A stretch of 57,893 bases of DNA from Catajapyx aquilonaris (Eukaryota): positions 62,001 to 119,893 of the forward strand of contig JYFJ02001981.1 in assembly GCA_000934665.2 (NCBI GenBank). The letters are read 5' to 3'. Shown here one piece after another: positions 15,001 to 47,500 of this stretch (its first letter is position 1; every line of letters starts with the position of its first letter). The notes beneath the pieces are model-generated. The model did no database searches. It saw nothing but the letters and a program-made list of their open reading frames with translations, and was not told the DNA's origin. The translations under genes and the position numbers were made by a program.

Positions 15001-16408
15001 AAGCGTGCAATTTATCGAGGAGGCGCCTCGTCTCGTGATCTTTGCTCTGAAACGGTTTCTTCTGTGAGGTCGAGGATATCCCGCAAAGTCTGGACTGTTC
15101 ATTTGCAACAAACTGTTGGCATCAGTCGTTTTTAGGAGAATTAACAGTGTAGCACTACCGGGTGGTGCACACAAAATGCAGATATCGAGTTCGAGGTTAA
15201 CCGATGTTTTACCTAAACAAATTCAGTATACTAGTATAGTGTAATTTAAATATGCAAATAAAACTGTGTGCACATTACTTTATGCCTCGAAATGCACTAT
15301 GTGCAACGAATCATAGCGCAAGCACTGCACATAAACTGCAAATACAGCATATGTCATAAACACAACAATAGTATGCAAATGTGACAGCGGTTTAAAAGCT
15401 AGCTATCGTGTATTTTTTAAAATAGTATATCCATCAGAAGATGGAAAGTACACCTTTAAGACAGGATATACAGTATATTATCACCCCCCCCCCCCTCCTC
15501 AATAATATCGCTACAATCCAGGGTAGTGTCGAGTTAATGAATAGGTTCACATTTGTTTGTAGTTAACGTTAAGCAGAATATCTGCCCTCAACTTGGGAAA
15601 ATGAACTCCAACTTCTCCTCTCACCCACTGATTGAGTTACATTATGCACATCGTACTTTTTATTCAGTACGGGTCACTGGAGCATGCCACGCAGAAGAGC
15701 CGGATAAGCTTAGAAGGCACATAAGCGTAATTATCCACCCTGCAGCATGAAACCGCCGCTAAACACCCCTTGGCAGCTCCCTTCAAATCGCTAAATCCCT
15801 GCAGCACCATCGATCCCCTTTTTTAATTCATTAAATCCACACACTCAATATTTAACATGCATACAATCCATCTTATCTCCAACACCATTCCCGAATCGGT
15901 CATATCCCCGCTGGAACACAAAACGGTTTGTAAACCCTGCACTCCCAGAGAGCGAATAATTGCATCCCCCGCCATAAGCCGCGTGAGGTCACAATTACAA
16001 GACCCTGGGACCACAAAGGAGTGGAACATAACCCATCCGAGCACGGGTAGCTGTACCCTAAACGGACCCGTTATCCCAGATGAGACGACACAGCCAGTGT
16101 CGCTATTCCAACCCACGCAGAATCCACCTTAACGGATTGCACCATGAGAATACAAGAAGAATCATCTCCTGGTACTTTGCCCTCTTCATTCTTTGCCCAC
16201 CCTTTTTTTTTTGCCATCTTCTTCCTAGTCTGTGGCGATGCTTCTTTTTTCACCCCCTTCTCCACACCCAGCTCCCATCTCCAGCTTGGAGGGGGGCTGG
16301 AACGGGATAGGTGGAAGAAGAAGGCATAAATATGGCGTAGGCAGCAAGGTAAGGGCCACTTTGGAACTTGCTTCACGGACCTCAAGGGGCTTACTCCGTA
16401 ACGTCAGC

Positions 16409-18177
16409 ATGAAGTTGGCGGTAAGTACCTGCAATCATTCATTCATAAACTGTAAGGCACACGCTCAATGAAAAGATTGGCTGACATATGACTTCAAATG
16501 ACATCAATGTCACTCAATAATAAGCGATTCATTTAATTTGTCAATGGCTTGAAAATTGCACCCATGCCAAGTTCCTGGCATGTATACCACACTAATTACA
16601 CGTGCACAGGCAGTAATTAACACGTTGTAACGCTTAAACGCATGTGCATCCAATAAAGCAATATCGCGCTAAAAATTTGCCAGCAGCCAATCCAGTCGGA
16701 TTCGCTTCACCGGAACGTGACATTTTCCGATTGATTAATGTCTGGCCCCTCAAATACATCTTCCAAACCAGCAACGATGTCTAGATATTTCAATCACACG
16801 AGTGCTTTGCTGTATCCCACCTAACTCCCCTCTCAAAAAATGTGGTGCCCATAAAGTTCTGAGGGGCGACCACGCCCAACACATTTCTACCTGATTGCAC
16901 ATTTGATAAAGCTAACAATGTCTTTTTCAGCTGTTCGTGGTGGCTTGGACCCTTTGGGTGGGGACTGAATCCCAAAGGTACCCAAATTATTACTACTACG
17001 ATGGCGCAGTGTCACCGGCAGTCTACAGAGCCAGAAATTATTACGAAGGAGAGCCCCGCCAAGTACAATACTACTACATGCCCAGGTACACCAGAAGAAG
17101 GGGAGCTTTTAGGAACACGAACGACGGACCAGTCGAAGCTCAGGGATCCAGATATGTAAACGGCCCTGGAGGTGGTCCAGGAGATGGACCAGCCTACAGA
17201 TACGCAGGTGGACCGGTTGGAGGACAGGGTGACGGACCCGGATACAGATACGTGGGTGGTCCTGGACAAGGGTACGTTCCGTCAGAGCCTGGCCCAGGAT
17301 ACGGTCCTGGATATGGACCTGGATACGGACCAGGGAGACCACGACCGGTGGCTGCTGCGGCCTTCAGAAACAGAGGACGAAGCGAACCACCAGCTTCAGA
17401 CGAAAGTAAGCCATCTACCATATTGTTGTGTAGCGGTCCAGCTTCTTTGGACGGCTACAACCGGCTGCGGTAATCTAATGGAGCTGGATGAACAAACTTC
17501 GGTCTTTATGGCATATTAAAGTTACAGTTTTTTATGCTGTCTGCACCCTTCATGATATGTTGTTTCATGTAAAATCGCTTGCCTCAAATGTCAGTTCCAA
17601 AATATCCAGCAGTTCACATCAACAGTTATTAACATATTGCCGAGTATCCTTCGAATAGCACCATTATATTATATACGTACCATCAGTTTCACTCAAGGTG
17701 GTAATAACTGCTGGTTTCCCAGTGGTGAATAGTGTTTCTTGTGGCAAGCAGCTTTATTGAATTTGGACAATGTCGGGACAGTTGGCCTGTCCCCATTATT
17801 TTGTCAGATCCATACAACACACTACTTTATAAAAAACCCTGTGCAATTCTTTGACTGCAGGCGACGACGACGACGATGAGGGTCCGTACCAGTACGTGCC
17901 AGTGAGGCGAAGGGGAGGAGGTGGCGTTGGTGGCGGGAGAGGAAGAGGGGTCCCGACGCGAGCAAGAGTGGACGACGACGACGAAGACGACGATGACGAC
18001 GACGACAACGAATGGGAAGAAAATTCTCCCCAGTACTACGTGTACTCCGGCAGAGGAAGAAGCGGCGGTCCTCCACCTCCGTACAGACGAAGAAGGCAAC
18101 GGCCCAGCAGGCGATATTACGGCCCAGCAGCCTACAGGTGGTGCCAGGGGAGAATCTGCGTCCCCGTCTACAATTGA
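16409..18177 (+). CDS. Orphan secreted Tyr/Gly/Pro/Arg-rich low-complexity protein, 267 aa, 3 exons (16409-16420, 16931-17405, 17861-18177)
   Basis: ATG AAG TTG GCG|GTAAGT, then TTTTTCAG|CTG gives signal peptide MKLALFVVAWTLWVGTES-Q. Exon 2 ends GAA A|GTAAG (phase 1) and joins TGCAG|GC GAC in frame. Contains GPGY repeats, poly-Asp blocks, Arg clusters and C-terminal WCQGRICVPVYN*. CATAAATA TATA-like box near 16325; AATAAA at 18658. A 4-codon first exon is common in arthropod cuticle and structural protein genes. Confidence 0.85.
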
Positions 18178-20761
18178 TCACTTGTACCTAAGCCAGCACC
18201 TGTACAATAATTGACCCTCACCTCAACCCAGTCCGTGATAGCAAGTATTACAATACTACCACTCACTACCCATGTAAATGCCCCGTCTCCAGCTCCAGCC
18301 ACTTGGCGCCTATCGACCACAGCCAGGTAGAGCTGCTCACCTGGTCGCCTTGGAAACTAACAAGCTGCCAATGAACGACCAGCTTCCCGCGTAGCCCCAT
18401 CATAACCCACCCCTCCTTGTATGGTGCACCCTACCCCCATTCCCCCCAAAAAAACACAATTTTTTTAAAGGTGGAAGAGAAAGAAGAAAATAATAATATC
18501 GTTTTGGAAGCCTTCTTTTGAATCCAACTCTCTCGGAGAATGCTGCGGGCGAGGAACCCGGTCGTTCAACTTTGCATTTAATTTATTGAAGCTTTTTTGT
18601 TGTTCGTGAACAGGAAAGTGAAAAGCTGGAACCATTACGTGCTAACATGACGTTGCTAATAAAATTATAACACTGCCAATTTTTTTTTAAACCCCCAACG
18701 CCCTTCATCTTCCCCTTCCCACATTATTAACACTCGACCCGTGCACTCGACGATGCTTCTGTGCAGCGTGGTTACTAAATGTACAGTAAGTGTTGCCGGT
18801 AAAGATTATCTCATCAATACCTTCTAAGTTTACAGGTGTGTGCTCCAGAGCCACTTAACAGAGGTACTGCTGGTTACACGGTGTTATAATATTGCACATA
18901 AGCCTCGAGGATACGAATGCAGTTCTATCTCTGGATAGAGACTTATATAATGATCAAACAGTGCATGACTTCCTGGTGAGCATTTCCGCTAGATGGGATT
19001 ATCCGAATAGCAAATCGCATGAAGCGGAATTAACCTTCGTGGCTGTGCGACATTTTCAGGATGTCAATTTGCATCACTAGCTTCCGAGGGATTGCAAAAA
19101 ATAAAAACAAAAAACTGAACCAGCGGTGCTTGTGCACCGGTATGCAACAAAGTTTGGGAAACTTTTAGTACTGTACCACACAGTATCATTATATTTGTCT
19201 CGTAATTTTGTTTGCCAACGTCCTTGTGCAAATACAATAATAATACAGCTTCGTCTTTATTCAGGACATTCGGTCGGCAGAATGTTACCTTACAAATGTC
19301 GTAATCATTATGGAAATTTGCATACAATTTACTGCACTGTACTGTACAGTACACACGAAATACTTTAGGAATAAAGCAGCACTGCCAGCTGTGCAGGTGC
19401 TTCAATATGAAATAATAGAAAATAGAAATAGAAAAACACAGTTCAGTTTTACTTTTCATCTGACATCATTACGAAAAACTTCCACTTCAAATTTTGGGGG
19501 CCGTGGGGAAAAGAACGATCCTGGCATGGATCCTTTGTTATTTCTCAGCACTTCCGCATTGCAAAAAAAACAAAAAATTGGATTTATTTTGTCCTTCACT
19601 CTGGGGCCCTGAATATATTCACCAGGTTACGTGAGTCCCAACAAACGGCAGGGCAGACAGGAGGTTACGTAAGTCACTCCCGTTGATTTTTATGATGGCA
19701 CTACAATAGCGGTATCACATATGAACAGTCACGAGAAAAAAAGATGAGGATGGACCTGGGTCAGGAGATCCCACGAATTCAATGTCACACGTACACCGGT
19801 AGAGGCGTAGAGCCCATCATTTTGCTTCGACTGTATGGTTGAAATTCCAGGAAGGCAAATTCAGCTTCGATAAGAACAAAACAGAATTTCTCACTGAGAT
19901 GGTCACAAAGTCGCCGCTCATTTGTATGCCTTGGAGACTCTGGTCTACCACTAGAATCCGCCCTGTCACAAGTTCGAGAGTCTCTGTGACTCTGAATAAT
20001 GTAGCTGGGTCGAGGGGTTATTTGCCAACAAGAATTTAACCAAGCGAGGTAAAGTCAAATAATTCTACTGAGCGTAGGTATGGAGAGGGGGCTGTCAAAT
20101 CATGATGAAATGGTAGTCTGTTGTGGGCTTAGGACCGGTCAGGGTAGAAATGCAATTTTCCTTGGATCTCCCATGTGAGACCGGGTCCTCCCCTTTTTTG
20201 GCCAATCTTAGAGACAGAACTGGATCAACATTGCAAGCGAGAAAGATCATGGCCAAGATGGCAGGAGTAATCCTGGGAAACCCTACCTATCCGTCTTTTC
20301 CTTTGCAGCCTGAGCTGCCTTCATTCTTTATTTCATATGTTACCTGTCAAGCACCATGGAGACGTGAGATTGCACTTTCATCCGCCTGAAATCAACATAT
20401 TGAATTGCTCCATTTGCTCCTCCTGCATGTTTCATTTCTGGCTCTCACTCATGTCGATTGTCTAGTCTGCCAACCTAAATCAAGTTTAAACTGCTTCCAC
20501 CGAGAAGTAAAATCAACATTTTCAAAAACACTGCATTGCTGTTTTCGGATTTCCATGTCTTATCAACAGTGGAAACATACAGTTTGTTAAGTCACAGGTA
20601 AATACATGGTGTCAGTAACAAAATTCGTGTAGATGTTTTGATAATCAACAAGAACCCGCAAATACTGAAACAAGTTACGACCATCATATACTCATGTTTA
20701 CCTACATAATACACACAGCTTATATTACATTTTATTGCATGAATGTCAAATTTTATAATAT

Positions 20762-21446: not shown

Positions 21447-22581
21447 TCACCAAACTTGCCAAGGTGGTTGATTCAAGCGATATAGGGACAAGTGGCTAAC
21501 ATTTACTGGTATGTTAACAAGAGCATATGGTAGATGTAGTCTCTCGAGGGTTTTCCTAATCATGTACCTGAAAAATCAACATCCTTTATGAAGGTAGATG
21601 CAATTCCAACAAAGGTACAACAAGGACCTCACCCATTTTTTCCAACCATGAAGGCAACTGGAACATGAACTTTTCGCTGAGTGCTGTCATCAATCATCTC
21701 AACAAAGCTAACGTCGTCAGCATGGTCACGATCTGACACAAGCAGAGCCATAGCACCAGCCTGCTGAGCTCGGATAGCCTTGCTCACAAAGGAACATTCA
21801 CCCCTCTCTGCCAAAGCGATTGCCCCTTGGAGGTCTTCTGAATTTTTAGGAGCCCCACAGCCACAAGGAGGGTCCACAGGCACAAGGCGCATCATCTTAA
21901 GCGACTCATTCTAAGAGAATAGTAAGCAGTTCAATGAAAACATGTTGGTACCTTGTTTGATACAGGTAAAAAAATATGCATAGTCTATCTTCCAATATGA
22001 AACCATTATTTTGCCTGAAAGTGACTGACAAGCCTTATTCAGTTGTTCCGAGTGAAAAGCTTGCAATACAAAAGAGCACGCAGAGGCCACACCACAAAGC
22101 TGAAGGCAAATGCAATTGAAAGCTGATTGATGTACGTCCCTGCTGTATTTTTTAAATGTGCCAGGCGATCACGTCTTTACCAGTATCATGTGATGTCAGA
22201 GCCATTCAACAATTCGGCAACTGCTTCAAACAGTACCATTGAGTAAACCCTGCCCAACTTACAAACAAGATGCCGAAGTCATTGGTGGGCTTGACTTTGT
22301 ACATGTAGGCAATCTCAGGTGGTTCGACCACCTCGAAGAAGAGGTCCTGCCCTACGAAGTCCCCTGCTCCGGTGCCGTCGTAAAAGTGAAGGTCGTTGCC
22401 TACAAAAATGACCGAATGGCCGAGTGAGATGCGCTCTTTTGCATATTTTGAAATGAATAAAAAAAAAGTGGGGGCAGAGAGAAACAGAGAGAGAGAGTGG
22501 CTCACCCCTGTTGAGTCCCAGCTTGACCAGGGCCAGGAGGATGAGGCAGACGGATGGGAGGTGTCCCCAGGCCGGACTCAT
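21447..22581 (-). CDS. PRADC1: Protease-associated (PA) domain-containing protein 1, ~203 aa, 4 exons (22581-22506, 22399-22263, 21910-21633, 21567-21447)
   Basis: Signal peptide, then FFEVVEPPEIAYMYKVKPTNDFG...IALAERGECSFVSKAIRAQQAGA...EMIDDSTQRKVHVPVAFMVGKNGYMIRKTLE...NQPPWQVW*, matching the PRADC1 family. All GT-AG junctions are in phase. An alternative upstream in-frame ATG lies at 22656. Confidence 0.93.
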
Positions 22582-24502
22582 CTCCCTCAGTCGGTCAAGA
22601 AGCGGGCCTCCACGCCCTGCGAGCAAGGCCGACTCACAAACGCCATGACACCTCATCCAAATGGGAGATGCCGGTAGTAGGGAGGGTGAGGTCGATACTA
22701 TCACGACGATACTATCCTCACAGCGCCACTTTCGAAAGGTTTTCGAGTATGAAAAATTCCCTGGCAGATCAACGAGAGATAGTAGTATGTAGAAGTATCA
22801 AAACTGTACCTGCAGGGGTGAAAGTGACTGACAAATTATTATTAACAGCTGAATTGATACGTCCCGCTAGTCCTTACTGGACAAGTGTCCGTTATGCACG
22901 ACAAAAATAAATGAAAATTTTCTACATGCCGAACAAAAATTATGTAAGTTACTGGAAATTACTATCGATTGGTCGTCATCGGTCGTCATGCATGGTGCGT
23001 GTAAACGGTTGCTACTTCCAGGTTATCGGAGTTGTCTGAAAAGTACTGTAGGTTGCAGGGGATATGGATGCCAGGGTGACGGACGGTGACGTTCGGGGAA
23101 GGCGGTGTGTTCCTCCACGTGTCGTTCTCGTTAAATTGAATGTGTAAGTACTGTTAGGGAGGGATATGGACTTTTAGTTCAGCATGTACATTTTCAAACC
23201 CATTTTTGCAGGGAAAAACATCCAAATCTGATTATGTTTTGAGTGGGATTCCACAGCCGCGTATAGTAGCCTACCTTTTGAAAAAGACCGTACCAACTAT
23301 GAATGATGCCATAGGCATAGATAAGGGGAAGTTTTCAAACGTTCAAAAAATCAGAGTTACGTATACTGCTCTATGGATGATCCAATATATGCAAGATGTC
23401 ATTGATTTAAAAGAAATATACCAGTATTCATTCCCTATGGTCTCACGACCAGCTATGACCGAAAAGTCCAGCATGTGCGGCAGTGCTTCACAATATAAAA
23501 CAGTGATCTTCCTCTAATTTGGTCATTATCATGTGCGATGTGCCTACTGCACGTACTTGGTAAAAAAAGTATTTATATCATATTAAAAAGTGACAAAATC
23601 CCAAATATCAAAATACTGCATGCAAACATTGGCGGTGCCAGTATTTCTTCTTTGTAATGATGTATTTTTCCAACAGAAAGATCATCCAACATGTTGTATA
23701 TCTGCAGGTGATTTAAATAATTATGTTGCATCGTCGTATCAGCTGCATTTAAAAGGCTGCATCTTGACGTTGATTGTGTTCATAAATCATCTTATCAAAT
23801 ATGACAGCTCTGCAAAATGTATAGTACCACTCCGTGTACAAATGAGCGAAAATCCAGGAATGCCGGCCTAATTAACTGATTGCAAAGAGCCCGTAGCGGT
23901 AGCCGATATTTTAAAATCGTTACAACCTTCGTCGAGGTCGTGCATAGCGATTCCTATCACTCCTGTATAACATGAATACCGGTATATAAGTTGCGTTTTA
24001 AAATCACAACCAGCATAAATACAACTGTATTTTCATTTATCTGCACATTGTCTTGCATGTTCAATGCAGTTCAAGAGACACACGGTCGCAAGTTTTCCCT
24101 TGGCCCTGTTACACGGTGTAGCTTCAGAAAATAATAATGATGGAAGAATCGGCAAGGTCGAAATGTGCAGAAGCATCATCATCATCAGTGCCGGTGGAAT
24201 AGAAGGACGTGCAGGAATCCCCCGTGCAGCTGCAGGGCGTTGCCCTCCATTTTTGGCCGCCCTCTAAGCCACCGAGCGACTCTTTGGTGCATAGTCCTAC
24301 CTGCCGGGCCCAAGCAATGTCCTCGGCACCGAGGTCACTCACACCCCCGACATGGAATCAGAGGAAGAGCCCGAGCGGCCTCAGTCTTCTCTAAACCTCT
24401 CCTAAGCAGCCATCTCTTCTCCCATACTCTTCACAAGGTAAAGTGTTGTCTCGCTTTATATCACGGTCTGCATCTGATGTCGACATTTCCAGATTTGACA
24501 CC

Positions 24503-25870
24503 ATGAAGACAGTGACTGTGGCTCTACTAGCCATGAGCCTGAGGCTGTGCCGAGGGCAACTGGTGGTAGGGCCCGGTGGAGACACCCCCGGCGTGGTTGG
24601 CCCCGAGGCGGCAATCAACTTCCCGAGTCGGTCAGGCTTGATGGACACCCTGAGGGACCTCCGCGCGTCTACAATGGTGGAGCTCCTGGAACGGACGGGG
24701 CTGTCCGAGGTCCTTCGCGCCTCTGGTCCATACACCGTCCTGGCCCCTAGCGACGACGCCTGGGAGCGTCTGCCCCGGGCAGCCAGGCGACGCCTGCAGG
24801 CCCAGCCCACCCTCCTGACCGACCTCCTGATGACCCACATTGCCCCTGGGAAGCTGCCATCCAGAACCATACTGGACCACCAGAAGCTCCGCACTCTGGC
24901 CAACCGCACCCTCACGTTCAGGCTCTTCGCAGACAGGGTTCGTTACCCACAAATGTTCACTGCTTGTAACGATGGGCGTTGACTGATTTTCGACCTTTTG
25001 TAGAAACCGAGTGTGAACCACGTGACTCTGACCCTGATGGACGCCACCGCCTCCAACGGTGTGGTACACGTGGTCGGAGACGTCATCTTCCCTCTTCCGG
25101 CTGAGAGCGTCATGCACGTGCTCGACGAATGTGACCAGTTTCAAATACTGCGCCAGTACATACGCGAATCCGGCTTGGAGGAAAAACTGATCAGTTCTGG
25201 TAAGTCACTTCACCATCTTCGGATACTCCAAAATAATATGTGCGCAGAATGTTTCATAATGATTCAAACCAACAGCAACATGGTGAACTCCTGATAGATA
25301 TCGCGTTCATTTCTTTGCAGTTGTGGCAGTGATGGTACAAAGATTCTCCTCAGAAAATGTGACAGTTTGTTCTCTTTTCAGACGTGTCCATGACTCTGTT
25401 GGCACCGACGGATGAGGCGTTCCGACTGGTCACTTCAGAATCGGCCAAAGAACTGTTCCGGAATGACGACATCACGGATCTCAACAATGTCACTAGTTTA
25501 ACCAGTGAGTATATAGGCTATTATACCCTGTCTCCCGTACTTCATCCGCTTTGGCACTGACACCGTGTCGTTGCGCAGGGACATTGCTGCACCACTTGGT
25601 TATGGGATCGCAGTTTAGCCCAGCTCTTCGGGATGCCCAGCAACTACTGTCAGCGGCAGACACGGACATTGACGTCGGCGTCAGAAATAGTGAGTTGGCC
25701 TCTGTCTCGTGACATTAGAACTTAAATCGATTTGCCTTTCACTTTGTCTGCTCTGTCTAGATCGTCTACGAGAAGTGGGTGTGGCAAGGGTGGTCAAGTC
25801 AGATCTCCCGGCGGCCAACGGAGTAGTTCACGTCATAGATCGAGTGCTACGTCCTGATGATATTTGCTGA
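24503..25870 (+). CDS. Secreted fasciclin (two FAS1 domains) protein, TGFBI/periostin-like, 324 aa, 5 coding exons (24503-24937, 25004-25199, 25382-25504, 25579-25689, 25761-25870)
   Basis: Signal peptide MKTVTVALLAMSLRLCRG. FAS1 H1/H2 motifs occur twice: GPYTVLAPSDDAW...ASNGVVHVVGDVI and MTLLAPTDEAF...AANGVVHVIDRVL. Splice phases are consistent; likely 5'UTR intron 24438-24492; AATAAA at 26018. Confidence 0.9.
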
Positions 25871-29829: not shown

Positions 29830-32800
29830 TTAACGCTTGGCAACCATGGTCCATCCGTCGCTCACTCCATCCTCTGCCCCTCCTGCACTGCTTTCCTCTG
29901 CACTGTTGTCAGCCTTGGGCGCTTCTTTTCGAACTGCTGCAAAAACAGCCCACAATTAGTGTCGTGTACACACCACTATGACAATGAATGCAGGCACTTG
30001 CAACCATGCAGTATTCATGCACAAATACATCCTTTGACATGTGGCCATTTGCCCTCATTTTCAAACAAATCTGGGCTAGTGTTCAATCCCACCCAGAGCT
30101 TTCTGCCATTTTCCTACTTCCAGTTGATTGACCTAAGAATGGTCATTGAAATTAAATGTCCCAAGGATAAGACATGGCAAAAATCACACATTACCAGATC
30201 AGGCTAAAGGTCAGACATATCATCAAATTAATCTTGGAAGTTAAAATGTTCTCTTGCAACTCTGACCATCATTCAGCCGTAACATACCTGGTTTCTTCTT
30301 GCGTTCCTCAGCAGGCTGCGGTGGTGGTGCTCCTGGGCTTTCTGGAGCTGTTCGTGGCTCTGTCCGTGGCTCTGTCCGTGGTTCTGCTCTTGGTTCTGCT
30401 CGTGGTTCTGTACGTTCAGGTTTCTCATTCTTATCAGGCCCATTTGCCTTCTGGGGTGGACGTTCAATTACGCGCTCTCTACGTTCTTCTCCCTTTGAAT
30501 CATCTTGCGTCCGTTTAGCAGCCTCCCTCTCTCGCCACCCACCACGCTCTACCTCACGACGCTCAGGTTCACGGTCAACACGTCGTTCCAGGTCACGCCG
30601 ATCAAGCTCACGTGGTGCTTCAGATCGGTCAAAGTCACGACGACGATCGAGGTCACGTGGTATTTCACGTCGGTCATCGTCTCTCCTGGGTCCCCCACCA
30701 CCACCAGAGCGCCAATTCATTGGCTCTGCAGCAGAGGGTCCAGTACGAGGCTCTTCTCGTTCTCTGTCACGATCCCTGCCATACAACAATTCATAATTAG
30801 CCATCTTACTAATCAGTATCACTGGGCTTTATGGCTGTGCCCGACAAGAATAAAACCTGTTTTACGAATTGCCTCTGAGCGTTATAAAGCGACTTCGCAC
30901 CCCGAACTGCAAGTCGTCGCTGCATATGGGCGGGCAGGGAAACACTGCTTCCTGCCATATTTCAAACTATGAAAAGGTTGCTGCTCGTGGCAAAGTATGA
31001 GAAAGTATGAGAAGGAGAGGTACACGAGCCAGGCCAACCTGGGGTCGGGCGGGCTCGGGGCGGTGAGCCGGGTGAGGGCAGTGTCCTACTAGACCACGGA
31101 CAGGACGAAGGCGGATGGGACGGTGGCAGAAGGACGGGACAGTGGACGGGACATTAGCGGCCATGCGGCCAAGGGGAATAACGCAATATGGCGGAGACGG
31201 GGAGCCGGAGGAGGTGAGGGTGGTGTGGATGTCATGTGACTCGAGATAACTTCCTCTGATTGGCTCAATGCGGCAGCAGCATGCAGTCAGACTTCTGGAG
31301 ATTTTGAAGCCGGTCCGGCAGCAAAATGCAGCTATGTGCTGCTTGTTGTCTTTTAATAAATTTGTCTGCCGCGCATGTTGCTTGCAGTGCGGTGTTATGA
31401 AGTGGCTTTATAACGCTCAGAGGGAATTTGTAAAACAGGTTTAACAGATGTTTACATAATATAATCATTGAAAACAACAAAGAGCAAAACCTAAATCAGC
31501 CACTCACCAAGCTGAACCTGGTCCTCTTCGATCTCCACGTCTGAAAATAATAAACAACTCTGTTGACTAATGTTCAGATAAATGACTTGATTCAATTTGC
31601 TATACCTCAGTGAACCGAGATCCCTGTCATCCTGGTCCCGGTCAACTTCACGATCCCTATTCCGCAACGATCCCCAATCCCTATCCCTCGGTGGACCATC
31701 ACGATCACGGTCCCTTGATAGAAAATCACGCTCACGGTCCCTGGGTGGGAAGTCGTGGTCCCTGTCTCTGGGTGGATAGTCACGATTGCGATCTCTGGAA
31801 GGAAAGTCCCGGTCTCTGTCTCTTGGAGGGAAGTCACGATCTCGATCCCTTGGTGGGAAGCCACGCTCCCTTGGCGGGAAGTCACGATCACGGTCCCTTG
31901 GAGGCAGGTCCCGTTCCCTTGGAGGCAGGTCCCGTTCCCTTGGAGGCAGGTCTCGTTCCCTTGGTGGCAGGTCACGTTCCCTTGGAGGCAGGTCACGTTC
32001 CCTTGGTGGAAGGTCACGCTCTCTTGGTGGAAGGTCACGTTCCCTTGGAGGCAAATCACGCTCTCTTGGTGGAAGGTCACGTTCCCTTGGAGGCAAATCA
32101 CGCTCCCTTGGTGGAAGGTCACGTTCCCTTGGAGCATCCCTCTGCTCTCTCCAACTACGAGAATCATCCTGCAAAGAAAAGTACGGTTACTGTAGTGGTT
32201 GCTAAATTTTTATACAGGGTAAAAGGAAACTCGCGGACAATCATCAGGTAGACTTATAATACTCATAAAACTACTATAGTGATGTGCAATTAGTTTTTGG
32301 CTCCGTTGCGGAGTTAATGCGTATGGCGCCTTTAAAGTGTAGAGGGCCGGATGGTAAAATATGAGGTAACAAGCACAGACTTTAAAAACCTTTTTAAGGA
32401 CACTCTTCGAATCTGAGAGCCTGTCACTCCGCCGTCTGGCGTGCGGAGGTTGCTAACTCATCCACTCACGTGACTACCACCCGATGATGGTGTGGAAGTG
32501 GCGATCTCACAAACTCACGTGACTACTACCACTATCTGGCATTGAGGTTGCGTACTCACCCCTAAATGTGAATACCTACCACTAGATGGTGGGGGAATGG
32601 CGAACTCGCTGCACGCGGGCGGACAGACTGTAGTGAAGCTAATATAAAGCGTGTAAAAATTACCCATGAATTCTTACTCTGACGGGATTTGATTCCCTAT
32701 TGCACATGGACGACGAGTCAGGTGACCAAGGCTGGATTGTTTGGAGGCCCTCAAGCTGACTTTTGCTTCTTCGAAGCTGGCAGAACGGATGTGACGTAAC

Positions 32801-35800
32801 GATTAACTATGCAACGGTGCCCAAAACTAATTACACATCCCTACATTAGTTTTACGAGTACTATCAGTCTACCTGGCGATTGTCCGTGAGGTTCCCTTCA
32901 CCCTGTACATTGTCTAAATCTTAGTAACTAAACTTGTGCGTCATGCTCACAAATCCTCATTTTGTGATGGAATGACGTGTCTAAGGCACCAAGTGTATTG
33001 GCAATAAAGTTCCTTTCTAGTCACTCTCTTGTGCCTCAAAATATTTGCACTTATTTAATTTACACCCTGCATGTCACACACACAGTGAGTCAGGCAAATC
33101 ATGATTATGAATTGTTTCCAATTTCATATGGCCACAGAAAGTGTTAGGACCTTTGCAAAAATTTTATACAAATTTTTTCTGGGAAGGCAACCCTCAAGAT
33201 GGGGTAATGGCAGGCCTATGGCAGGCCTATGACACTCCTCAAATACGGTAGGTTAACACCTGTGTCCTGGCCAGACGGCGCTGGTGGCGGAATCCCTCCA
33301 GTGGTCCCTCCATTGTCTGCCGCCATCTTGAAGACCCATTCCGGTTGGCTGGCAAGTCAATCTGCCTACGGGTGGGTGCCAAAAAAAATACGCAGAAAAA
33401 TAAGTAGGTACTGCTCGGTACTGCTAGCTATCTTTAGTCATGTCTAAATAAAATAAATAGTACACTTACAATGCTCTTTTACAATCACCTCCTGCTCGCT
33501 TGACATTTTTGTTGTGTCCAGAATGCCTTCTGCACATTTACCGAGCATTGTAAGTGTACTATTTATTTCATTTAGACATGACTAAAGATAGCTAGCAGTA
33601 CCGAGCAGTACCGTACTTATTTTTCAGCATATTTTTTTTTGGCATCCAGCAGATTGACTTGCCAGCCACCGGAATGGGTCTTCAAGATGGCGGCAGACAA
33701 TGGAGGGACCACTGGAGGGACATCCGCCGTCAGCGCCGTCTGGCCAGGACAGTTATTAACCTACCGTCACCATACATGTAGGTGGGCTGTGTCAGGGGGC
33801 TGGGTAATGGAAAGGAAAACCAATGTTTCTCTAACACACAAACTTTCATATCAATTTTAGTGGTAAATTTGCAACCCCTTTTTAAAAATGTTCATTGTTA
33901 TTGTTTTTGTAAAAATTTAACAAGATTTTAAAATGCTCCTAATGCTGTTTTAAGTTCGGAAAAGCTAATTTTGAAACCAATATCTCAGTTGGGTACCTAA
34001 GTGGAATAAAACCGTATTTCACTTTTTCATGCATTATTGGAAGCATCCCCAATAAAACTCCACCTCTTATTAGAAAACACCTACTTAAGACTGTAAACTG
34101 TGTTCCCTTCTTGCTGGGCTATCTGTACTTTTAGATTATACATGACGATTTACTTACAAATCCACGTCTCACTGGACGATCATCGCGGTCTCGATCCCCG
34201 TCCAAGTCACGGTCTCGAGGCCCCAGCCTGTCTCTGCTCAGAGGAGGGAGAGCAGGGCCACGCTCTGACCGTTCCCTATCCTGGTCATCATCAGCATCCC
34301 GGCGTGGAGCATAGCGATCTGTACCAGCTGCATCAACCGCCTGCCACTTATCTGAAAATACAGGAACAAATGGTGATGCAGAAAATACGAGTGCGGATCA
34401 AACAAAAATTAGAACAGTGACATTATTTATTAACTGGCCATTTCATATGATGTTTGAGAGAGGTAGGTGTGGACAGTCAAGTTTAGAAAGTTTGCTAAGA
34501 GGTAGAGTGTTAGTCGTGCAGTAGCTGTGCAAGACGGTGGATCCCCTTCTAGTATGCACCAAGGAGGAGGAGAGAGCTGTCATTTGATTTTGGACAAAAT
34601 GCACATCAGCAAATGCACATATCTGCCATGTACGTATCTCTCAGTCACTTTGTCTACGAGTAGTGTAAAATATTTCAGAACGGTGCAAGTAATCTGACAG
34701 ATGCTCTGATTCCAGGCCAGTGGAATGGACCTGTGCCAGCTGGAATTTTTTACAGCACTAGTGAACATGTGATTGCAAGATACATTCCAGATCAACATTG
34801 ATCATGCATTTTCTGAAATACTTCGTTGGGTTTTGTTCCTTCTGCGACAAAACTCATTACCACCATTCTCTTCCTTGGTCATGTCTCACAAGCCCTCTGT
34901 TCCATTCATGTGCCAATAATGACAGTCCACTCTCCCACTGTGTTTGAAATACGAGATGATGAAAAACTCGTTGATGGATATTGTGTAATATCTGAAAACT
35001 GCTTGTATGTACCAGGTAAAAATCACAGATTTTTTTCTTGTAGAAGACCTGCCAATAAATTGCAAAATTTTGTTACCACTGCAGCATCAAACCCATTCCA
35101 CTTCAGGTTAACTTGGGACACATTTGCTTTACCCCACAAGAGAATGAAACCTGAGCTCTTATGACCTCCTTGACGTTCTGGTTTGGGTGCCAAAAACTCC
35201 CTTCATAAATTCACATGACATTGATCAGCTTTGTAGTGTATCCTGCATGGCATATTCTTTTCCTTCACTGAAAGACTTACTGTGTCATGCTGTAGAAACA
35301 ATATTACTCATGCCTATAGAGAAATTTCTCAACTTTCTTTTTCTGTTTTGTTCTCGAAAGTACTATGTGTTGTATAAACAGCATCGCTTTATCACTAATA
35401 CTAAATACAGCATTGCTTTTAGCATTGTGATGTGCTAAAAAAGAAAACTTACTGGAAGGTCTCCCAATGTCTCGCCGGCTTGATGCTGCATCATCTTTCT
35501 TCCTCCAGTCTTTCTCCCCCTCTCTTCCTCCCCCATCTCTTCCTGGCCCATCTCTTCCTGGCCCATCCCTTCCTGGCCCATCCCTTACTGGCCCATCTCT
35601 TCCTCCTCCATCCCGGCCACCAGCCCACCTGTCTGCATCCCTCTCCCTGGCCAGCTTCTCCTCAATCTCCCTTTCCCTCTTTCGCTGCTTCTCAGCAGTG
35701 ATTTCCAGATCCCTCATTCTCTTGGTGATGCGCTCCTCCTCTTCCTCCTTTTTCTGCCTATCAATACGCTCATCCTCTTCCCTTTGTCGCTTCAGCTCCT

Positions 35801-38800
35801 CATCCCTCTTCAACTGCTCTTCCTCCTCCTTCTGCCGATACCAGCGACTTCTGCGTTCAGATTTGCGCTTCTCACGACGGTCCTGCACACGTCGTCTCTT
35901 CATCTCTTCCAGCTGGCGCTCAAATTCAGCCAATTTCTCCTGGTAAACTGAGCTGCGAGCCTTTTTCAATTTGTCCAAAAACCTCTCCTTGTCATCTCGC
36001 ATGCGTGCCAAACGATCCCGATGTGCCACAGCCAGTTTACGTTCTTCTACCATTTGAGAGATCCGCTCTTCTTCATACTGCTCCCACAGCTCCTTATCCT
36101 TGGCCTGTAAGAGAAATTCAATTAACCAAACTAATATGGTAACAAATTACTCTTGATATGGTTTGCAATGGGGTCCTAATTTTTTACTGAATGTTGTTTT
36201 TTTTGTTTGAAGAAATACGTATCAGTTTTTGAGCTATGATCGATCAAAGATCATATTAATTATATGGTATCGTACTGCCCTCTGACATCACACAGGGAAA
36301 AAACTAGTGGTGCAGACGCAGAAATGCACCAATTCTGCTACGTTCCTTGGTTTTTTTTTGCTTTTTTGGTGAGGCCTAACAACCACTCCTAACCGCCGAA
36401 TTGCAGGACTAACAGTAAACACGAGTGTTACATTCGCCCAAACAATTGGTTTCATCCCTGATCAAATCATTCATATAGAAGCACGGCCTTGACTTCACAT
36501 GAAAAATGGCAAGGGTCCACATGCACCCGAGGTCACGCCCCCCTTTTCCCCGCCAATTTGAGAGTGACTTTTAAAACCCGTGATAATTTATCGAGGAATG
36601 ACATTTTGGTGCTGAAAAGTGGTGGAATGCTTGTTTACATGTATGGTTGAGCTAGTCGTGCACAATTTCCCAAATCCCAGGCCAAGGCTAGGACCCCACT
36701 GCAAACCCTCATCAGAAATAATTATTCAAGTCAGGCGGCATTTAGAAAGGTCAGAAGTTGCTTGGATCACATTACTACATATCATGTGATTCATCTAAAA
36801 ATACTATATTTCAAAACCTATGGGACCTCATCAATGAATCTGCTTTCAGAACAATTCGACATACACAGCATCGGCAAAAGCTGCAGCATCTGAAGATATT
36901 TGTAAGAAAATTACTTTTGTGCCTGACACTGATAGTAACATCACAAGTAACCAAATGTTGCAAGGCCAACCCACCTGCTTCTCATCAATGTATTTTTGGA
37001 GGAAGGGAATCTCTTCAATACGTTTGGCCCTCTCAAAGTAGTCCACCTTCTTCTCTTGTGCTTTGTGCTTCTTTTGCAACTCCTTCTGCTCCTTGGCCAG
37101 TTCCTCAACCTGCTTGGCCATAATCTGCTCTGGGTCCATTGTCAGCAGATCTTCCTCGGCCATATCCTTGATCACTTTCTGTCCAACCTTAGGGTAATTT
37201 CAAATTGAAAAATTAATATTTGATATGTCTTCTAATTGTGGTATTTTAGTTGTCAGTTAAATGTATAAAAATTCAAACAAAAAACTTGGAATCCAAGACA
37301 TTAGTTATTTCGGTTCCTGTGCTACTGCAACCAATAATAATCAAGGACAGGTCTGCACAGGATCACACAAATGCAACTGCTGTGCTTTTCACTAATCACT
37401 TTCCCCCTGTAGCCCTACCTTGTGCTGGGAAAGCTCTTCTATCTTCTTACGCAAATGCTTGGCCTGAATCTGTTTGATCTCATCCTCCTGTCGTCTTCGC
37501 TCCCTCTCTTCCCGTTCCTGCTCTAGGCGCTTCTGCTCTGCAAGCATTTGCTGCCTGAGCAGCTCTTCCTGCCTTCTCGCTTCCTCTTCTTCCCTAACAG
37601 TGTTCTGTCTCTCAAGCGTCTCTTTCCTGTCTTCTATGATCTTATGTCGTGCCAAGATACGTTGGTGTTCACGGGCTTTGGTCTGGTGGTAGGCGGCAGC
37701 AATCTGGGTCCGTAATTCATCCCGCTCTGTCTTTTTACGCCGTGGGTCTATGGTGTTAACAGCACGGTGCAGAGCAGAATTCATGCACACCAGTTGGTTC
37801 CGGATCTGCTCGCTTGGCATGCTCTGCATTGTGGGGCCCTCAGGAAGGTCCTCACGCTGAGACTCAGAAAGGTCTGCGCCAAAGTGGATGCAATGTCGGG
37901 AATGATCTATGCGGATCTGGAGAGGGATGAAACATGGTTAAATTTGAGATTCCAGCAACAAGGACAGAAATCAAATTAATATTTTTTATGGATGATATCC
38001 TTGAAGTGATCCCAACACATTCAGAAGCAGTCATAATCTGAACAGGAAACAAGCCAGGCCTGAGTCTCTCACCTGCATATCATTATGCCGCACTGCATCA
38101 ACGAGCACTCGTTCCATGTGAAATGGGGTTGTGAAATGTGCCAGGCGAAGAAGATGCTCAAACTCGATGGTATGGTACACCTGTGCCACTTGCTTAACAA
38201 GACGTACTAATGTTATGTCTTTTAATGCTGAGATGTACTGCACCAGATGTACCATATCCTCTGACCCATCCACATGCTCCACTACTCCATTGACCAGCTT
38301 GCAGAGTTTCAATGGCTCAAATCGTTCTTCCAACCATGAGTACAATTCCTGCAATTCTGGAGTGGCAGTGGAAACAACATTAGCTCGAGTCAGGTCCTTG
38401 ACCAAGGAGACTCGGGTTGGAGGTTGAGGCAATCCCAGGAGGACTGCCAACCTCTGAGCCTTCTCTGCAGGACTCTTGTCTGTTTCAATAAATCGGTCAA
38501 ACTCTGGGTGCGCAGTGGGAAGCGGGACAGACAGAGTGGCAACCAGCACACGAGAGGCCATCTTCTGCAATTCCTCTGGTGTAATGTTCTTCTTCATCTC
38601 TTTAGACAGCTGGAACAGCTTGAAGAGAGCAGCAGCATGAAAGAGGAAGTTGTTGGCCTTCCAGAACACAAGAGCCAGCTTCTGGTAATAGTTGGCCATC
38701 ATCTTCGGCTGAGGTGGTTTCTTTGACAATGTCATTAGACCATGGATATCCTCAATTGCCTTGTATGCTTCCTAATAAAAGGAGAGAGGGGAGGTGTTAA

Positions 38801-41800
38801 CATTCCAAACTTGAAAATAATGTATCTTTCTATATCAGTAACACATTACTGCTAATGTCAGCAGAATCCCTGAAATTTTTTCATTTGCTTCAACTTAAAC
38901 ACAAAATCTCACAGCACTGACCTGCCAAAGCTCCATCTGAATAGCTGAGTCAAGCTGGGTCAAGCGAGTCTCCAAGTTGAGTTGTTGTGTCTCTGCATTG
39001 TTCAGATTGATGTTCATGGGGCCAGGGGGCAGCTTCAGAATATCATCCAAATGCTTTCGAAGCTTATCACATAGCTTGCGAAACTCTGTCTTGCGTGTGT
39101 ACTTCAAGCAGAATTTGAATGTCTGAAATGTGGATTAGCAGCAATTTAGATAATAATTTGTAATGCCAGTATAATTTTTAAGCTAATTTTCACAGGGCTC
39201 TTTGCCTTTGATCTCCAAAGAAGTTAAGAATTACTGCTCTTATGTACCTGACAATATTAAAACACATGTTTACAAGGCACTTTCATGATTGTAGCGGAAG
39301 AAATAAATCCTTTAAAGAAATTTTCTAACTTGTAGTGTAAATATTTTACCACAATCAGCATGCTTGGAAGAACCAAAGAGTGAAAATCTAGATGTATTAG
39401 TTTCCCAAAAACCAACTAATAAAAGCGTACCATCTGGGCAATGTAATGATAAAGACGCTCCACTCTGGCATTTGTTCTCAGAAGTTCCAGGCACTGGCAA
39501 TAAGATTCCCACAAAAACTTGACCCAAGGGGTCAGGATGGCTCGATCCGTCCTGTCCTGTGCATCCTCGCCACTGACAGCACTGAAAAAAAGTATCTCAT
39601 TATATAACAATGGTAATTACACATTAAGTCCACACATAATACGAAATTATGCAGGGTGCCCAACTCACGACTTTACCCGACATTTCTTGAATAACTTTAA
39701 CACGAATGAAGATATCGCAACTTTGAACTGAACTTACCTTATTATGTGAGAAAGGAAATGGCATCCCAACATGTGCTGGAAATGGCCACCATTTGTGTCC
39801 AGGCAGGCCTGAACACAACACTCCATATTTTGCAAGGTCCAGGCCAGCATGTCCTGATGCACTGCCTGAATTTCTTCAATGACATTTTCTCAAGACGTCG
39901 ATGGATTGTGGTTTGTTTCGGTAAGTATGACACACATCACATGTCAGCATGGCCAAAATTCAGTCCTTTTTTGAAGACCGAGTCATTTCGAAGGGATTTT
40001 GGTCACCATGGTTGCCTGATCTTACTCCGCTTGATTACTCTTATGGACCTTTCTGAAAAGGCGAGTGTACCAAAACGAACCACAATCCATCAGCGTCTGG
40101 AAAGAAAACATCATCCAAGAAATTCAGGCAGTCCCTCAGGACATGCTGGCCAGGACCTTCCAATGCGCCAAAATGTGGAACATTGTTCAGGCTTGCCTGG
40201 ACGAAAATGGTGACCATTTCCATCACATGTTTGTGACACCGTTTCCTTTCCTACATAATGGCGTTAATTCATTTCAAATTTCGTTGGGATATCTTCATTC
40301 ATATTCAAGTTATTAAATAAATTCCAGGTAGAGTAGCCAGTGGGACACCCTGTAATATGAACTGTAAGACGACATTAAAGCACTGTAAATGACATTTAAT
40401 AGCAACATATCTTGGACAAATTCTGAATGATAAATTGGTGCACATACCTCAGAAGAATGCTCTCAGGTGTGGCAACATTATCTAAGTCATCAATATCAAC
40501 CACTGCTTGCTGGGACTGCTCACGAGCCTGGTCCGTCCTCTCTTCTGCCATTGTAAGATAACCACGCACCACATTTTCAAGTGATGCTACATTCACCTAA
40601 AAAAAATCACACCTTAAACTTCTGACAAACAACAAGACACTATACCAACCATCTGGCAGAGGTTCCTATACTGGAACAGCCCTTCCTTGGCAAAGTGTGA
40701 CTTCTTCAGCTCCACACAGAGGTCCAAGTACTTAAACATGATGGGCTCCAAGATCTTCTCGCTGCAGTTGTGGGCCCGCTTGCGGCTACGGATAACCTCA
40801 TACAAGGTATCCAGAGCCCGAGCAGGCTTCCCCACCTCAATAAACTCTGGAATAGTTAAAATATCACAATAGAGTTTTCATATCTGTTTGAAGTTTTAAA
40901 ATGACACTTTATATCAGGCAAAGAGTATGAGCGAATATCATTGTAACTGCAAAAATAATTGTAAGAGCAACGAGAACCAGAGCCATTGCACACTGCATAA
41001 TTTTTTAAATCCTATTTTCTACTTCATATCAGATGTAAACTAAGTAAAATGGCATGCCCAGTTTATCAGGGGTCACTAGATGCTACCAATAATACTGGGG
41101 CTTAGTGAAGTCCCTCCCTGTAGGCCTGTACCATACTAAATGTTACTGTACTTTGTTAATAGTAGCTCAAGAACCAAGTAAAGGTTACCTTAAAGCTTTG
41201 TCACAGGACGTTTCTCTCTTAACACTTCTTATACATTAACAGCTTTGTCCTAGGGTGGCCAGAGGGGGAGACTTACAGAGTCGAATACCTCTAATTCATT
41301 AATTGGGGAACCATCCTGGCATTTCCTGACAAACAAGTATAGCTAACCAAAAATACTTCGACCATCATAATGAGCCTAACAAATTGAACTCACATTTGGT
41401 TTATTAGGAAGGACCCAAAGCAACTATGGCTATCTGGCTGTCAGAAGATACAAGGTGGGTCAGATGGACACAGAAACGAAGAGAGAGAGAAAAGATAGGA
41501 AAGACTGGTCTCTCTCTTTGTCTGGCGGAACTCAGCAACAAATTGGACAAGTTTTGTGCTACAACGTTACATTGTAAAAAGTAATTACCTCATAGTAGGC
41601 TAATAACGGTAAACTTTCAAAAATATTTCCCCATATTAAAAATTCCAGAATAAAAAGACATAAGTGTTTTAACTTATTAGCATTGCAAGTTCCTAATGAA
41701 CCAATTGCTTGTATACAGTATACAGTAGTTTCTTCCCATCTATAGGCCTTAAAACTAATTTTAAGATCTCATGTGACAGAAACCGACACTTTCCTATATG

Positions 41801-44590: not shown

Positions 44591-47500
44591 ATGGCGGCGC
44601 GCATTGAGCTCCTCAGCTGCAACATCTTGGGTAATATTCGGTGATTTCACGCTTCCAGATGACGCCTTTTTGCCAGACAATCAGTGGTTTAGAAAGGCCT
44701 TGATTAGGCTTAAAACGGGCACATGACCTAACTATGTAGGATGTTTCATTTTCTGGAAAAATTAATAAAACCTATGCAGTTGGTGCCAATTCGAATGTGC
44801 AGGTTTAACCCTTAACTAGTGACCTGGAAAATCCTAACACTCACGGTCACCTGGGGTGTTTAAAGACCCCAGGGGATTTTTTAAATATATATTGCATTTA
44901 ATGATAAATATCTGCTATTTAATTTTTTTACACAACACCTGCAACTGTTTTCTTTTCAACTCTCTAGCTGCCGTAGAACGGAATTAAAAAATCATATACC
45001 TAACTACAATTAAACATTTTATAACAAAAAAAATTGCACCTGGGGTGTTGAAAGACCCCAGGTCACCAGTTAAGTGTTAAGTACATTGCAGTGACAGGAA
45101 ATTACCGAATTTAAAAATCATCGTGACTACCGTGGTCATATACTGTATAACACTGGTAATTAACTTATTTTTGATGCAAATGCTAGCTGTTAACACACCA
45201 TTGACATAATAGTATCAATGGTGGTGTTCATATTAGGCAATCACATGCAACATTTTGTAAGGTTAGCTGCACTGTCATGAGCATCATTCAGAATCAAGTG
45301 ACATGCAAACGAATTTATTGTTCCTCACAAGCCATTTATGTATGCAACAATGTTACAAGTGTACTGTCTCCTTTTTCAGAAAAAGACACAAACAATGACA
45401 TCCTGTGTACGTGGACATTCCCTTCGATCACAGAGGACCAGCGCCGCCTAATCATCCGGAAATGTGGCCTAGAAGATGACTCTTCACAAATCCGTCCCTT
45501 CTTGTTTGGACGTTTCAGAAAGTCTTTCTATTACATTCAGAATACAGAAGTGTTTGATTCTGATAACCTTCCAAGGGTCAAGAGGTTTGCTCTTGTCCTT
45601 TGGGCAGCTGACTTCAATCCTGAAAAATATGAAACACTCTGCCGGATATTAAGCAAAACATACTGCAAAACAGGTGACTGCATTTTTTTAAATGCTAGTA
45701 GCAAGGATATTCCATGGCAGTCTGTGGAGTTATTGTTCAAATATGTCACTGTAAGAAGTAGAGGTGTTGATGGCAAAGTGACATATTTCGACATATCTGG
45801 AATCCAATGTTTTTCCCACTTGTCAGTGTCAAAGAATATGATGTGGGTGCTCAAAGTAGCAAACAACTACATGCAAACTAACAAGTAGGCCTATCATGTT
45901 ACTGAACACTGCACTTTTCAACAATATGGGTTGTAAAAATCTGACACACAATCTTGATTCTGAGGGTGCAGTCCCTTTTTCTCAGAACTGAACTAGGTGA
46001 CTCCAAAGAAAGATATTTTTTCGCAATTTTTTAGAGATCTACTTGTCAAAAAAATGCAGTGTCCAGTGAAACCTACCTTTAATTGATCCTTGTTGCAGGG
46101 GAAATTCACCCATTGCAGAACTTGATTCAGTTATGGTGTAGGATTTCCAGACTCCTTTCTGACTGTCATGCTGAAGTACATCTCAACTGCACAGTACACA
46201 TGTTCAAAGCCTTCAATGTTACAGTCTCAAGGGTCGTCGAATCTTAAATGTTTTGTTCAGGTGCAAAGGTTGCACTCCAGAATTTCACCTGGAGTGCAAA
46301 TTACTTGGAGTGCTTAATTTTTAATTGCTGGGCTTAGCCATGTTAAAAATCAGGACGAAGTGCAGTGTAAACTATCCACTTCAACTCTTCAAGGCTCAGT
46401 TTGGAGTGCAGACAACTATTTTTGGAGGGCATGTTGTACCTTTGCATTCAAATATTTTGACCCCTGCAGTCTGTGTGTTTCAGACATAATCAGAAGTAAA
46501 AATAACTTCTGAATGTTTTTCACGAATTCTATAAAGACTTTCTCCAGATGCAATCCCATGTACATGACTGGGCTGGAAATCCTCCTAATATTCCATAATA
46601 CTGGTCACCATTGTTACATTCCCCAGCATCCAGCATGTCACTATTTGTGAGATCATAGTAACTTCTAAGTAAGACCTAATGGATCCTGGCAATTATCTTA
46701 ACAGGTAATGCTGCTGTAATGCTGCAGCTCTACCTGTCTGTGGTGACAAAAGGGTGTTGCATCACTGAAGAAAATGGGACTTTCGTCACCAAAGCTTTCA
46801 AGCAAGAGAGTGTGTTGTCCAATTCCAACATCCGAAGTGTCATTGAAACATTTGGATTGGAAACAATCCTCATCTACACTGCCATTTTGCTGAAAAGGAA
46901 AGTAATGGTCTATCACCACAGTTTGGACACACTGTTGAAGGTATGCATCATTCACAAGTAGGTGTGAGAACATCCCTGAAAAGGCTTTTAAGGGAGGATT
47001 AAAAGGACTGTCCCAACCTGTGAGGTCCTTCAGCCCTAAAAGCCCCATTATTTACTGGCAAAGAAATACAGCTAGAAAGGTAGAATTCAAGTATTCAAGT
47101 ATTAAGCTCAGCCAGAACCCTGTCCACCTGTTGTAAGCAGAACAAATTGAAACCAGGGAGAGCACAGGTCACCAAGGCCCCATAGGAACGTGGCCACCCG
47201 AGTTCCTTAGAGACCACATCCATATGGAGATCTTGGCTGAAAAGGCTGAATGAATCAATCCAATATCCTCGTGGATTTCTATACAACCCCCATCAAGAGT
47301 ATAATTTTATTATAATTAAGTTCACATGTTTCTTCCTCATGTATTATCAGTTCATGCGGGCACTTCCCACCTTGGTATGGCACCGGCAATGCTGGGACAC
47401 CCTGTACCCTTGGATAGACCTAAACTCGGAGGAGATATATGACCTGAAAGCAAGTGATCACTATCTGGCTGGATGTTTAGAGGCAGGGGTTGAGTCACGT

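Follow-up and report, generated by a model that had tools for sequence, protein, structure and literature searches.

What does a gene do whose product consists largely of glycine, arginine, proline and tyrosine, carries blocks of aspartate and resembles no protein in the databases searched? This question is raised by positions 16409 to 18177 of a stretch of 57,893 nucleotides (nt) of Catajapyx aquilonaris DNA (assembly GCA_000934665.2, contig JYFJ02001981.1, positions 62,001 to 119,893), referred to below as the window. An original prediction, made from the letters of the window, had placed there a three-exon gene for a secreted protein and offered two readings of it: (a) a structural protein, cross-linked through tyrosine or coacervating by charge, and (b) a precursor cut at arginine sites to release a cationic peptide resembling the tachyplesins. 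Our results describe an unannotated, lineage-specific low-complexity gene of a kind that is abundant in arthropod genomes, with an unusually clean block design. We tentatively favour, with a confidence that stays short of an even chance, a lineage-specific, secreted, disordered and self-associating Tyr/Arg matrix protein, probably associated with the cuticle. The structural or coacervating reading is the best available one, and the tachyplesin-like reading is weak.

The three-exon gene model is probably real, as judged from the signals in the DNA. The predicted gene lies on the + strand and joins positions 16409-16420, 16931-17405 and 17861-18177 into a spliced coding sequence of 804 nt, which encodes 267 amino acids (aa). 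The predicted coordinates were reproduced exactly from the DNA, and the spliced model has GT-AG introns in phases 0 and 1 and a signal peptide. All protein strings that had been quoted are present as well: QYYYMPRYTRRR, QYVPVRRR, QYYVYSGRGR, YRRRR, the GPGY run, both Asp blocks and the C-terminal CQGRIC. The features of the gene and its product are as follows.

16326..16332, + strand: heptamer ATAAATA as a TATA-like box; it lies 77-83 nt upstream of the ATG and is weak alone, heptamers of this sort being common.
16409..16420, + strand: coding exon 1, the ATG and three codons (12 coding nt), where the signal peptide begins; position -3 is A; donor GCG/GTAAGT.
16421..16930, + strand: intron 1, 510 nt, phase 0, GT..AG, G+C 0.416; acceptor TTTTTCAG ends at 16930.
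16931..17405, + strand: exon 2, end of the signal peptide, Tyr-rich basic N-terminal region, Gly/Pro/Tyr repeats and first residues of acidic block 1.
16931..16972, + strand: rest of the signal peptide, with hydrophobic core and small residues at -3 and -1; Gln (16973) is the predicted first residue after cleavage.
17288..17335, + strand: run of GPGY repeats, 12-nt unit GGATACGGACCT, 2.9 copies.
17406..17860, + strand: intron 2, 455 nt, phase 1, GT..AG, G+C 0.404; acceptor GACTGCAG ends at 17860.
17861..18177, + strand: exon 3, the remainder of acidic block 1, then a Gly/Arg segment, the second acidic block and the basic Tyr/Pro/Arg C-terminal region; stop codon TGA at 18175-18177.
17971..18021, + strand: acidic block 2, in which Asp and Glu make up 15 of the 17 residues; encoded by an imperfect GAC-type triplet repeat, period 3, 13.7 copies, 84% matches.
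18085..18096, + strand: RRRR run, the only furin-type site (Rx[KR]R) of the protein.
18133..18168, + strand: predicted C-terminal beta-hairpin, two 5-residue strands with a Gly-Arg turn; Cys257 opposite Cys262, compatible with a disulfide.
18658..18663, + strand: polyadenylation signal AATAAA, about 480 nt 3' of the stop codon.

The case for the gene rests on the coherence of these signals, because the length of open reading frames (ORFs) is uninformative in this window. Stop-to-stop ORFs of at least 110 aa number 71 here, so that length alone is no evidence, and other frames are open over the low-complexity DNA of the gene itself, for example 17160-17519 (+) and 17822-18187 (-). Exon 2 begins, exactly at a good acceptor, with the hydrophobic core of a signal peptide that lacks a Met of its own, and the four-codon exon with the ATG lies 510 nt upstream. 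The pattern ATG-N9-GTRAGT has two matches in the window, exon 1 among them, with 1.04 expected by chance. The donor at the end of exon 2 (AAA/GTAAGC) stands in phase 1, the sole phase of the three that keeps exon 3 open, and the acidic block runs across the junction. G+C content by codon position is 0.64, 0.58 and 0.52, against 0.416 and 0.404 in the introns; a similar step is found in the neighbouring eIF3a gene (exons 0.46-0.52, introns 0.31-0.42). Codon choice is skewed too: TAC is preferred to TAT (26 to 5) and GAC to GAT (17 to 4), GGA accounts for 23 of the 48 Gly codons and AGA for 18 of the 35 Arg codons. Taken together, the signals are coherent and the gene model is probably credible. 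A donor-like AAGGTAAGG was also noticed at 16349-16357, between the TATA-like box and the ATG, and a further small intron in the 5' untranslated region or an alternative first exon is possible. For annotation the lesson is that first coding exons of 12 nt hide genes of this type.

The first 18 residues form the predicted signal peptide, which is split by intron 1 and has a mean Kyte-Doolittle hydropathy of 2.12 over residues 3-15. The whole product contains 48 Gly (18%), 35 Arg (13%), 32 Pro (12%), 31 Tyr (12%), 21 Asp (8%) and two Cys. Its only Lys is located in the signal peptide, and the mature chain is without Lys and without His. Arg clusters are four in number, at residues 59-61, 178-180, 238-241 and 246-247. 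With a net charge of +3 the mature chain is nearly neutral; it is a polyampholyte that falls into five segments, from the N terminus to the C terminus:

about 140 aa: Tyr/Gly/Pro-rich basic region, net charge +8.
14 aa: acidic block 1, net charge -8.
27 aa: Gly/Arg segment, net charge +7.
20 aa: acidic block 2, net charge -15.
48 aa: Tyr/Pro/Arg tail, net charge +11.

To assess whether this arrangement is non-random, the mature protein was shuffled 2000 times. Charge segregation amounts to 0.130, compared with a shuffle mean of 0.049 +/- 0.008, and was reached by none of the 2000 shuffles. Sequence charge decoration (-2.38 versus a mean of -0.97) was reached by 71 of them and the number of YY pairs (8 versus 3.8) by 37, while the number of RR pairs (8 versus 4.8) was reached by 153 of the 2000 and is not significant. 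The block design of charges is real. At the start of exon 3 (region 17863-17900), two Tyr directly follow acidic block 1, and a Ser-x-Glu site stands just before the block. Acidic residues next to Tyr are the usual context of tyrosine O-sulfation in secreted proteins.

Protein structure was predicted with AlphaFold2 (AF2) in single-sequence mode, each of the two long exon products being modelled separately. The exon-2 product reaches a mean pLDDT of 52.0 and is ordered only in the signal helix (residues 2-16, pLDDT 88). In the exon-3 product (mean pLDDT 60.4) the C-terminal hairpin is the sole confident element: its strands occupy residues 91-95 and 98-102, its Cys residues are numbers 94 and 99 of that product, and the pLDDT of the block is 88. 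In the strand register as we read it, Trp, Tyr, Ile and two Val share one face. The terminal Cys hairpin, proposed from the sequence, is thereby borne out as a single-sequence AF2 prediction with the Cys pair facing each other. Outside the signal helix and the hairpin, the protein is predicted to be almost wholly disordered.

These properties suggest how a matrix protein of this composition might work. Removal of the signal peptide would leave the N-terminal Gln, followed by some 235 disordered residues that could behave as a sticker-and-spacer polymer. Its stickers would be the 31 Tyr and 35 Arg, which can engage in cation-pi and pi-pi contacts, and its spacers Gly and Pro. The two Asp-rich blocks may pair with the Arg-rich blocks, or keep the chain in solution until there is a change in pH, salt or Ca2+. 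Condensation would take place in an extracellular matrix, for which the cuticle or another epidermal secretion is the most probable site given the gene architecture, and Tyr-Tyr cross-links would possibly fix the condensed material. A fixed docking element would be provided by the disulfide hairpin alone, one face of which is made up of aromatic and aliphatic residues. Usual quinone tanning runs through His and Lys residues; this route is closed to the mature chain because both are absent from it, while cross-linking between Tyr residues stays available. Secretion, condensation, cross-linking and tissue are all steps that we infer. The original prediction's reading (a) fits the signal peptide, the disorder, the restriction of basic residues to Arg, the Tyr with Gly/Pro spacers, the acidic blocks and the 12-nt exon.

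The cuticle is favoured as the site because the architecture of the gene is like that of cuticle genes of Anopheles. According to the available text of PMC2259329, 86% of the Anopheles CPR cuticle genes that have introns carry one within the part that encodes the signal peptide, the first coding exon has a median and mode of 12 nt, and a TATA box and INR are present in 93%. In the gene described here, exon 1 has 12 coding nt, intron 1 interrupts the signal peptide, and ATAAATA lies at 16326-16332. Among low-complexity cuticular proteins, the CPG, CPH, CPLC and GYR/YLP groups are likewise secreted, Gly/Pro/Tyr-rich and marked by short repeats, as far as the available text of PMC2259329, PMC12426002 and PMC2932725 describes them. 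Judged by these family descriptions, the protein is set apart by 13% Arg, the absence of Lys and His, two poly-Asp blocks and the C-terminal disulfide hairpin. CPG is a group defined by composition, with GXGX, GGXG or GGY repeats and expression in the epidermis as its features; here we find 18% Gly, the GPGY run and a Gly run. For GYR/YLP (PF02756, PF02757), GxGYRY-like strings occur in exon 2, and neither family was reported at E<=10, a negative result in which HMMER filters drop most weak short matches and the presence of the two models is unchecked.

Two further families associated with the cuticle or epidermis share single traits with the protein. CPCFC proteins, cuticle-associated and occurring throughout Pancrustacea, contain closely spaced Cys pairs in the form of C-X5-C repeated three times (PMC12426002, in the part available); the present protein has a single C-X4-C (Cys257, Cys262) and departs from that definition. 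Silkworm NPLP4 is secreted, very rich in Tyr and highly expressed in the epidermis at moulting, with a conserved C-terminal YYX in which X is L, V, I or G (PMC3032748). Our protein is also Tyr-rich and predicted to be secreted; it differs from NPLP4 in its 267 aa and its last residues V-Y-N. NPLP4 proteins are much shorter and are not known to carry Asp and Arg blocks.

The best parallel with experimental backing that we found comes from a tick. GRP77 of tick cement (UniProt Q4PME3) is described, in the available text of PMC11794139, as secreted, Gly-rich and, outside its signal helix, disordered. Its phase separation is driven by the Arg/aromatic half and nearly abolished when Arg is replaced, the acidic half acting as a regulator (PMC11794139, same text). 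Signal peptide, predicted disorder, an acidic segment and Arg plus aromatic stickers with Gly-rich spacers recur here. There are also differences: 77 mature residues in GRP77 versus 249 here, 9% aromatic residues, mostly Phe, versus 12% Tyr, one acidic half versus two short poly-Asp blocks, no Cys hairpin, and a chelicerate as the source. That our protein works like GRP77 would thus be an analogy and not membership in one family, no sequence similarity between them having been found.

The search for relatives covered several collections. Pfam-A hmmscan with both exon products found no family at E<=0.1; at E<=10 there was none for exon 2, and exon 3 gave only a chance NOA36 row (E 2.4). With phmmer, the exon-2 product had no match at E<=0.001 among 1.84 billion protein representatives. 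Word-index searches yielded 14 candidates for the C-terminal 57 residues of exon 3, sought among longer proteins, but no match at E<=1; for the exon-2 product, the 8000 scored included two rows, at E 4 and 10, neither of them relevant. In the ESM Atlas the best score for exon 2 was 0.80 and exon 3 had no usable match. PDB sequences held no match at E<=10 for either the last 25 residues or exon 2, and of the 599 and 602 pattern matches in JGI metagenome contigs none was confirmed by tblastn. A literature search for the motif GYGPGYGPGY gave no match. As a control, a conserved eIF3a exon from the window was searched and matched 411 proteins at E<=1e-20. Of the 120 matches listed, all those with a name were from insects; the best identity was 73%, and identity to human eIF3a about 60%. 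The genome is accordingly that of a pancrustacean arthropod without a close relative in the databases searched, in support of the original prediction's tacit assumption of an arthropod. Since even eIF3a reaches only 73%, the lineage is poorly sampled and orphan status is weak evidence. A fast-evolving low-complexity protein in a poorly sampled lineage is expected to look orphan.

Several points weigh against a cuticular matrix protein. With no homolog in the databases searched, purifying selection cannot be shown. According to the authors of PMC2259329, in its available text, genes other than cuticle genes can have a short first coding exon too. Neither the R&R (PF00379) nor the ChtBD2 chitin-binding domain, nor any other Pfam family, was found in the exon products; this agrees with the original prediction, which had seen no R&R motif, and places the protein outside CPR. 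Cuticle genes are often clustered, yet tblastn of the spliced product revealed no paralogs within the 58-kb window: it returned itself and low-complexity chance rows, the best of which was a Gly/Arg/Asp repeat of eIF3a. The comparison with tick GRP is one of composition and architecture only. The repeated unit of a Tyr cluster followed by basic residues, another element of the original prediction, exists as strings, but its non-randomness is marginal: Tyr followed by R.?R within 5 residues occurs ten times versus 5.3 in the shuffles, 93 of the 2000 reaching that number. Finally, the Asp blocks are encoded by imperfect GAC-type triplet repeats and the GPGY run by repeated 12-nt units, so that slippage can explain the origin of the blocks, and neutral expansion of triplet repeats could have produced the Asp blocks. 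A further direct repeat, 15743 against 16405 (72% over 25 nt), was judged to be due to chance.

The same repeats bear on the idea that the locus has no function at all, its open frames being a by-product of low-complexity, repeat-prone DNA, or the gene being very young or decaying and its product without a role. No relatives in any database searched, other frames open over the same DNA among the 71 ORFs of the window, and short tandem repeats in parts of the coding sequence would all agree with this. We nevertheless hold it to be unlikely. By-product DNA would have to provide a Met-less signal core at a good acceptor together with an ATG mini-exon and a consensus donor at the right distance, a phase-1 donor that keeps exon 3 in frame with the acidic block spanning the junction, an exon G+C step as in eIF3a and the preference for TAC over TAT. 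Most of exon 2, moreover, is not repetitive at the DNA level.

About equally doubtful is the pro-peptide reading, in which convertases would cut at the Arg clusters, the acidic blocks would neutralise cationic parts in storage, and a Pro/Arg/Tyr-rich C-terminal hairpin peptide would be released for defence or signalling. The four Arg clusters with their one Rx[KR]R site invite it, as do the 48 C-terminal residues of net charge +11 directly after the -15 block and the predicted hairpin, in which the two Cys face each other. In size, the C-X4-C ring equals the inner loop of tachyplesins (PMC6747087, available text), and Gly/Tyr-rich secreted peptides are reported as epidermal antimicrobials of nematodes (PMC2453101, likewise in part). 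Precursors of neuropeptides and prohormones would lead one to look for further traits, and these are missing: among the Arg clusters there is no Lys-Arg site, Gly-dibasic amidation sites (G[KR][KR]) number zero, and no peptide copies are repeated between sites. No relative was found among known peptide families (Pfam, PDB sequences). Tachyplesins themselves have 17 residues, two disulfides, a charge of +7 and C-terminal amidation (PMC6747087, available text). The predicted hairpin shares the size of the inner ring with them, but the last 20 residues here contain two Arg and can form one disulfide at most, the chain ends in Asn without a Gly amidation signal, and aromatic and aliphatic residues, not cationic ones, line one face of the hairpin. 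Of the original prediction's reading (b), the hairpin and the Arg clusters have stood; the tachyplesin analogy has failed on disulfide number, charge and amidation signal.

A self-associating secreted protein could also serve outside the cuticle, in eggshell or chorion, glue or cement, a spermatophore or a silk-like thread. Such a protein would draw on the sequence evidence already given for the cuticular matrix protein, and the tick cement GRP offers an adhesive precedent; peroxidase-type cross-linking of Tyr would suit a chain free of His and Lys. We consider such a use improbable, as the gene architecture leans to cuticle genes, though not exclusively.

Rather improbable, too, is a Ca2+-binding or biomineral matrix protein, a role that presupposes an animal that calcifies. 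In a crustacean cuticle hardened by calcium, or in a calcium store, its Asp runs would bind Ca2+ or amorphous CaCO3, and its Tyr/Gly/Arg parts would tie it to the organic matrix. The two acidic blocks, the second with its 15 Asp or Glu among 17 residues, and the S-x-E type site at the start of acidic block 1 speak for this role. CAP-1 carries an R&R domain. Acidic proteins and phosphoproteins of crustaceans, namely CAP-1, CAP-2, orchestin and GAMP, have been proposed to stabilise amorphous CaCO3; they are secreted proteins of cuticle or calcium stores with acidic segments linked to CaCO3 (PMC3335408, available text). They are acidic overall, whereas the mature protein here is nearly neutral (net +3), and no R&R domain was found in it. 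No similarity to described crustacean matrix proteins emerged from the Pfam, phmmer and word-index searches, and the named eIF3a relatives among the 120 matches listed are all insects.

The most elaborate proposal is a condensate former under control. Here the poly-Asp blocks would mask the Arg/Tyr stickers in the secretory pathway; Ca2+, pH or cleavage at the Arg clusters would release them outside the cell; Tyr-Tyr bonds would lock the material and the hairpin would pin it to chitin or another matrix partner. We regard this full scheme as decidedly improbable. If true, it would present a one-chain version of the two-component polyanion/polycation cements of other animals. An intracellular RGG/Tyr-rich RNA-binding protein was considered and rejected on account of the N-terminal hydrophobic signal sequence.

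Returning to the secreted matrix protein that we favour, the gene, if expressed, would supply a compact natural polymer of Arg/Tyr stickers and spacers, secreted, in which the acidic blocks are segregated and one end alone is folded. It could then be used for studying the assembly of arthropod matrices and cements, and as a template for protein materials.

The gene stands alone in the window, with a stretch without recognisable genes on one side and ordinary genes on the other. Its nearest downstream neighbour appears to be a putative protease-associated (PA) domain protein, as which the frames at 21629-21910 and 22206-22577 (-) read. An exon with a fasciclin (FAS1) domain (24395-24982, +; Pfam E 4.7e-19) is preceded by an apparent signal peptide of its own and may belong to a second gene of the secreted matrix type, some 6 kb downstream. 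A TPR exon was recognised by Pfam among the neighbouring genes, and eIF3a occupies 30200-40850 (-). Within eIF3a, at 31491-32186 (-), lies a run of Arg/Asp/Pro-rich repeats of about 10 residues (PRERDLP-type), over which all three frames are open on both strands; open frames over repeats therefore mean little here. The frame at 45205-45888 (+) reads like DENND10/FAM45, an assignment made by reading only and with no Pfam match. The eIF3a and DENND10 genes are neighbours on human chromosome 10 also, which would possibly reflect an old conserved linkage.

Rfam gave no family in the window, and ARAGORN found no tRNA-like element. Four single N bases (3582, 5426, 8245 and 12638) are each located inside a long homopolymer run of G (or C). 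Their flanks show no mutual alignment (mean column identity 39%), and the four look like uncertain homopolymer base calls, not a repeat family.

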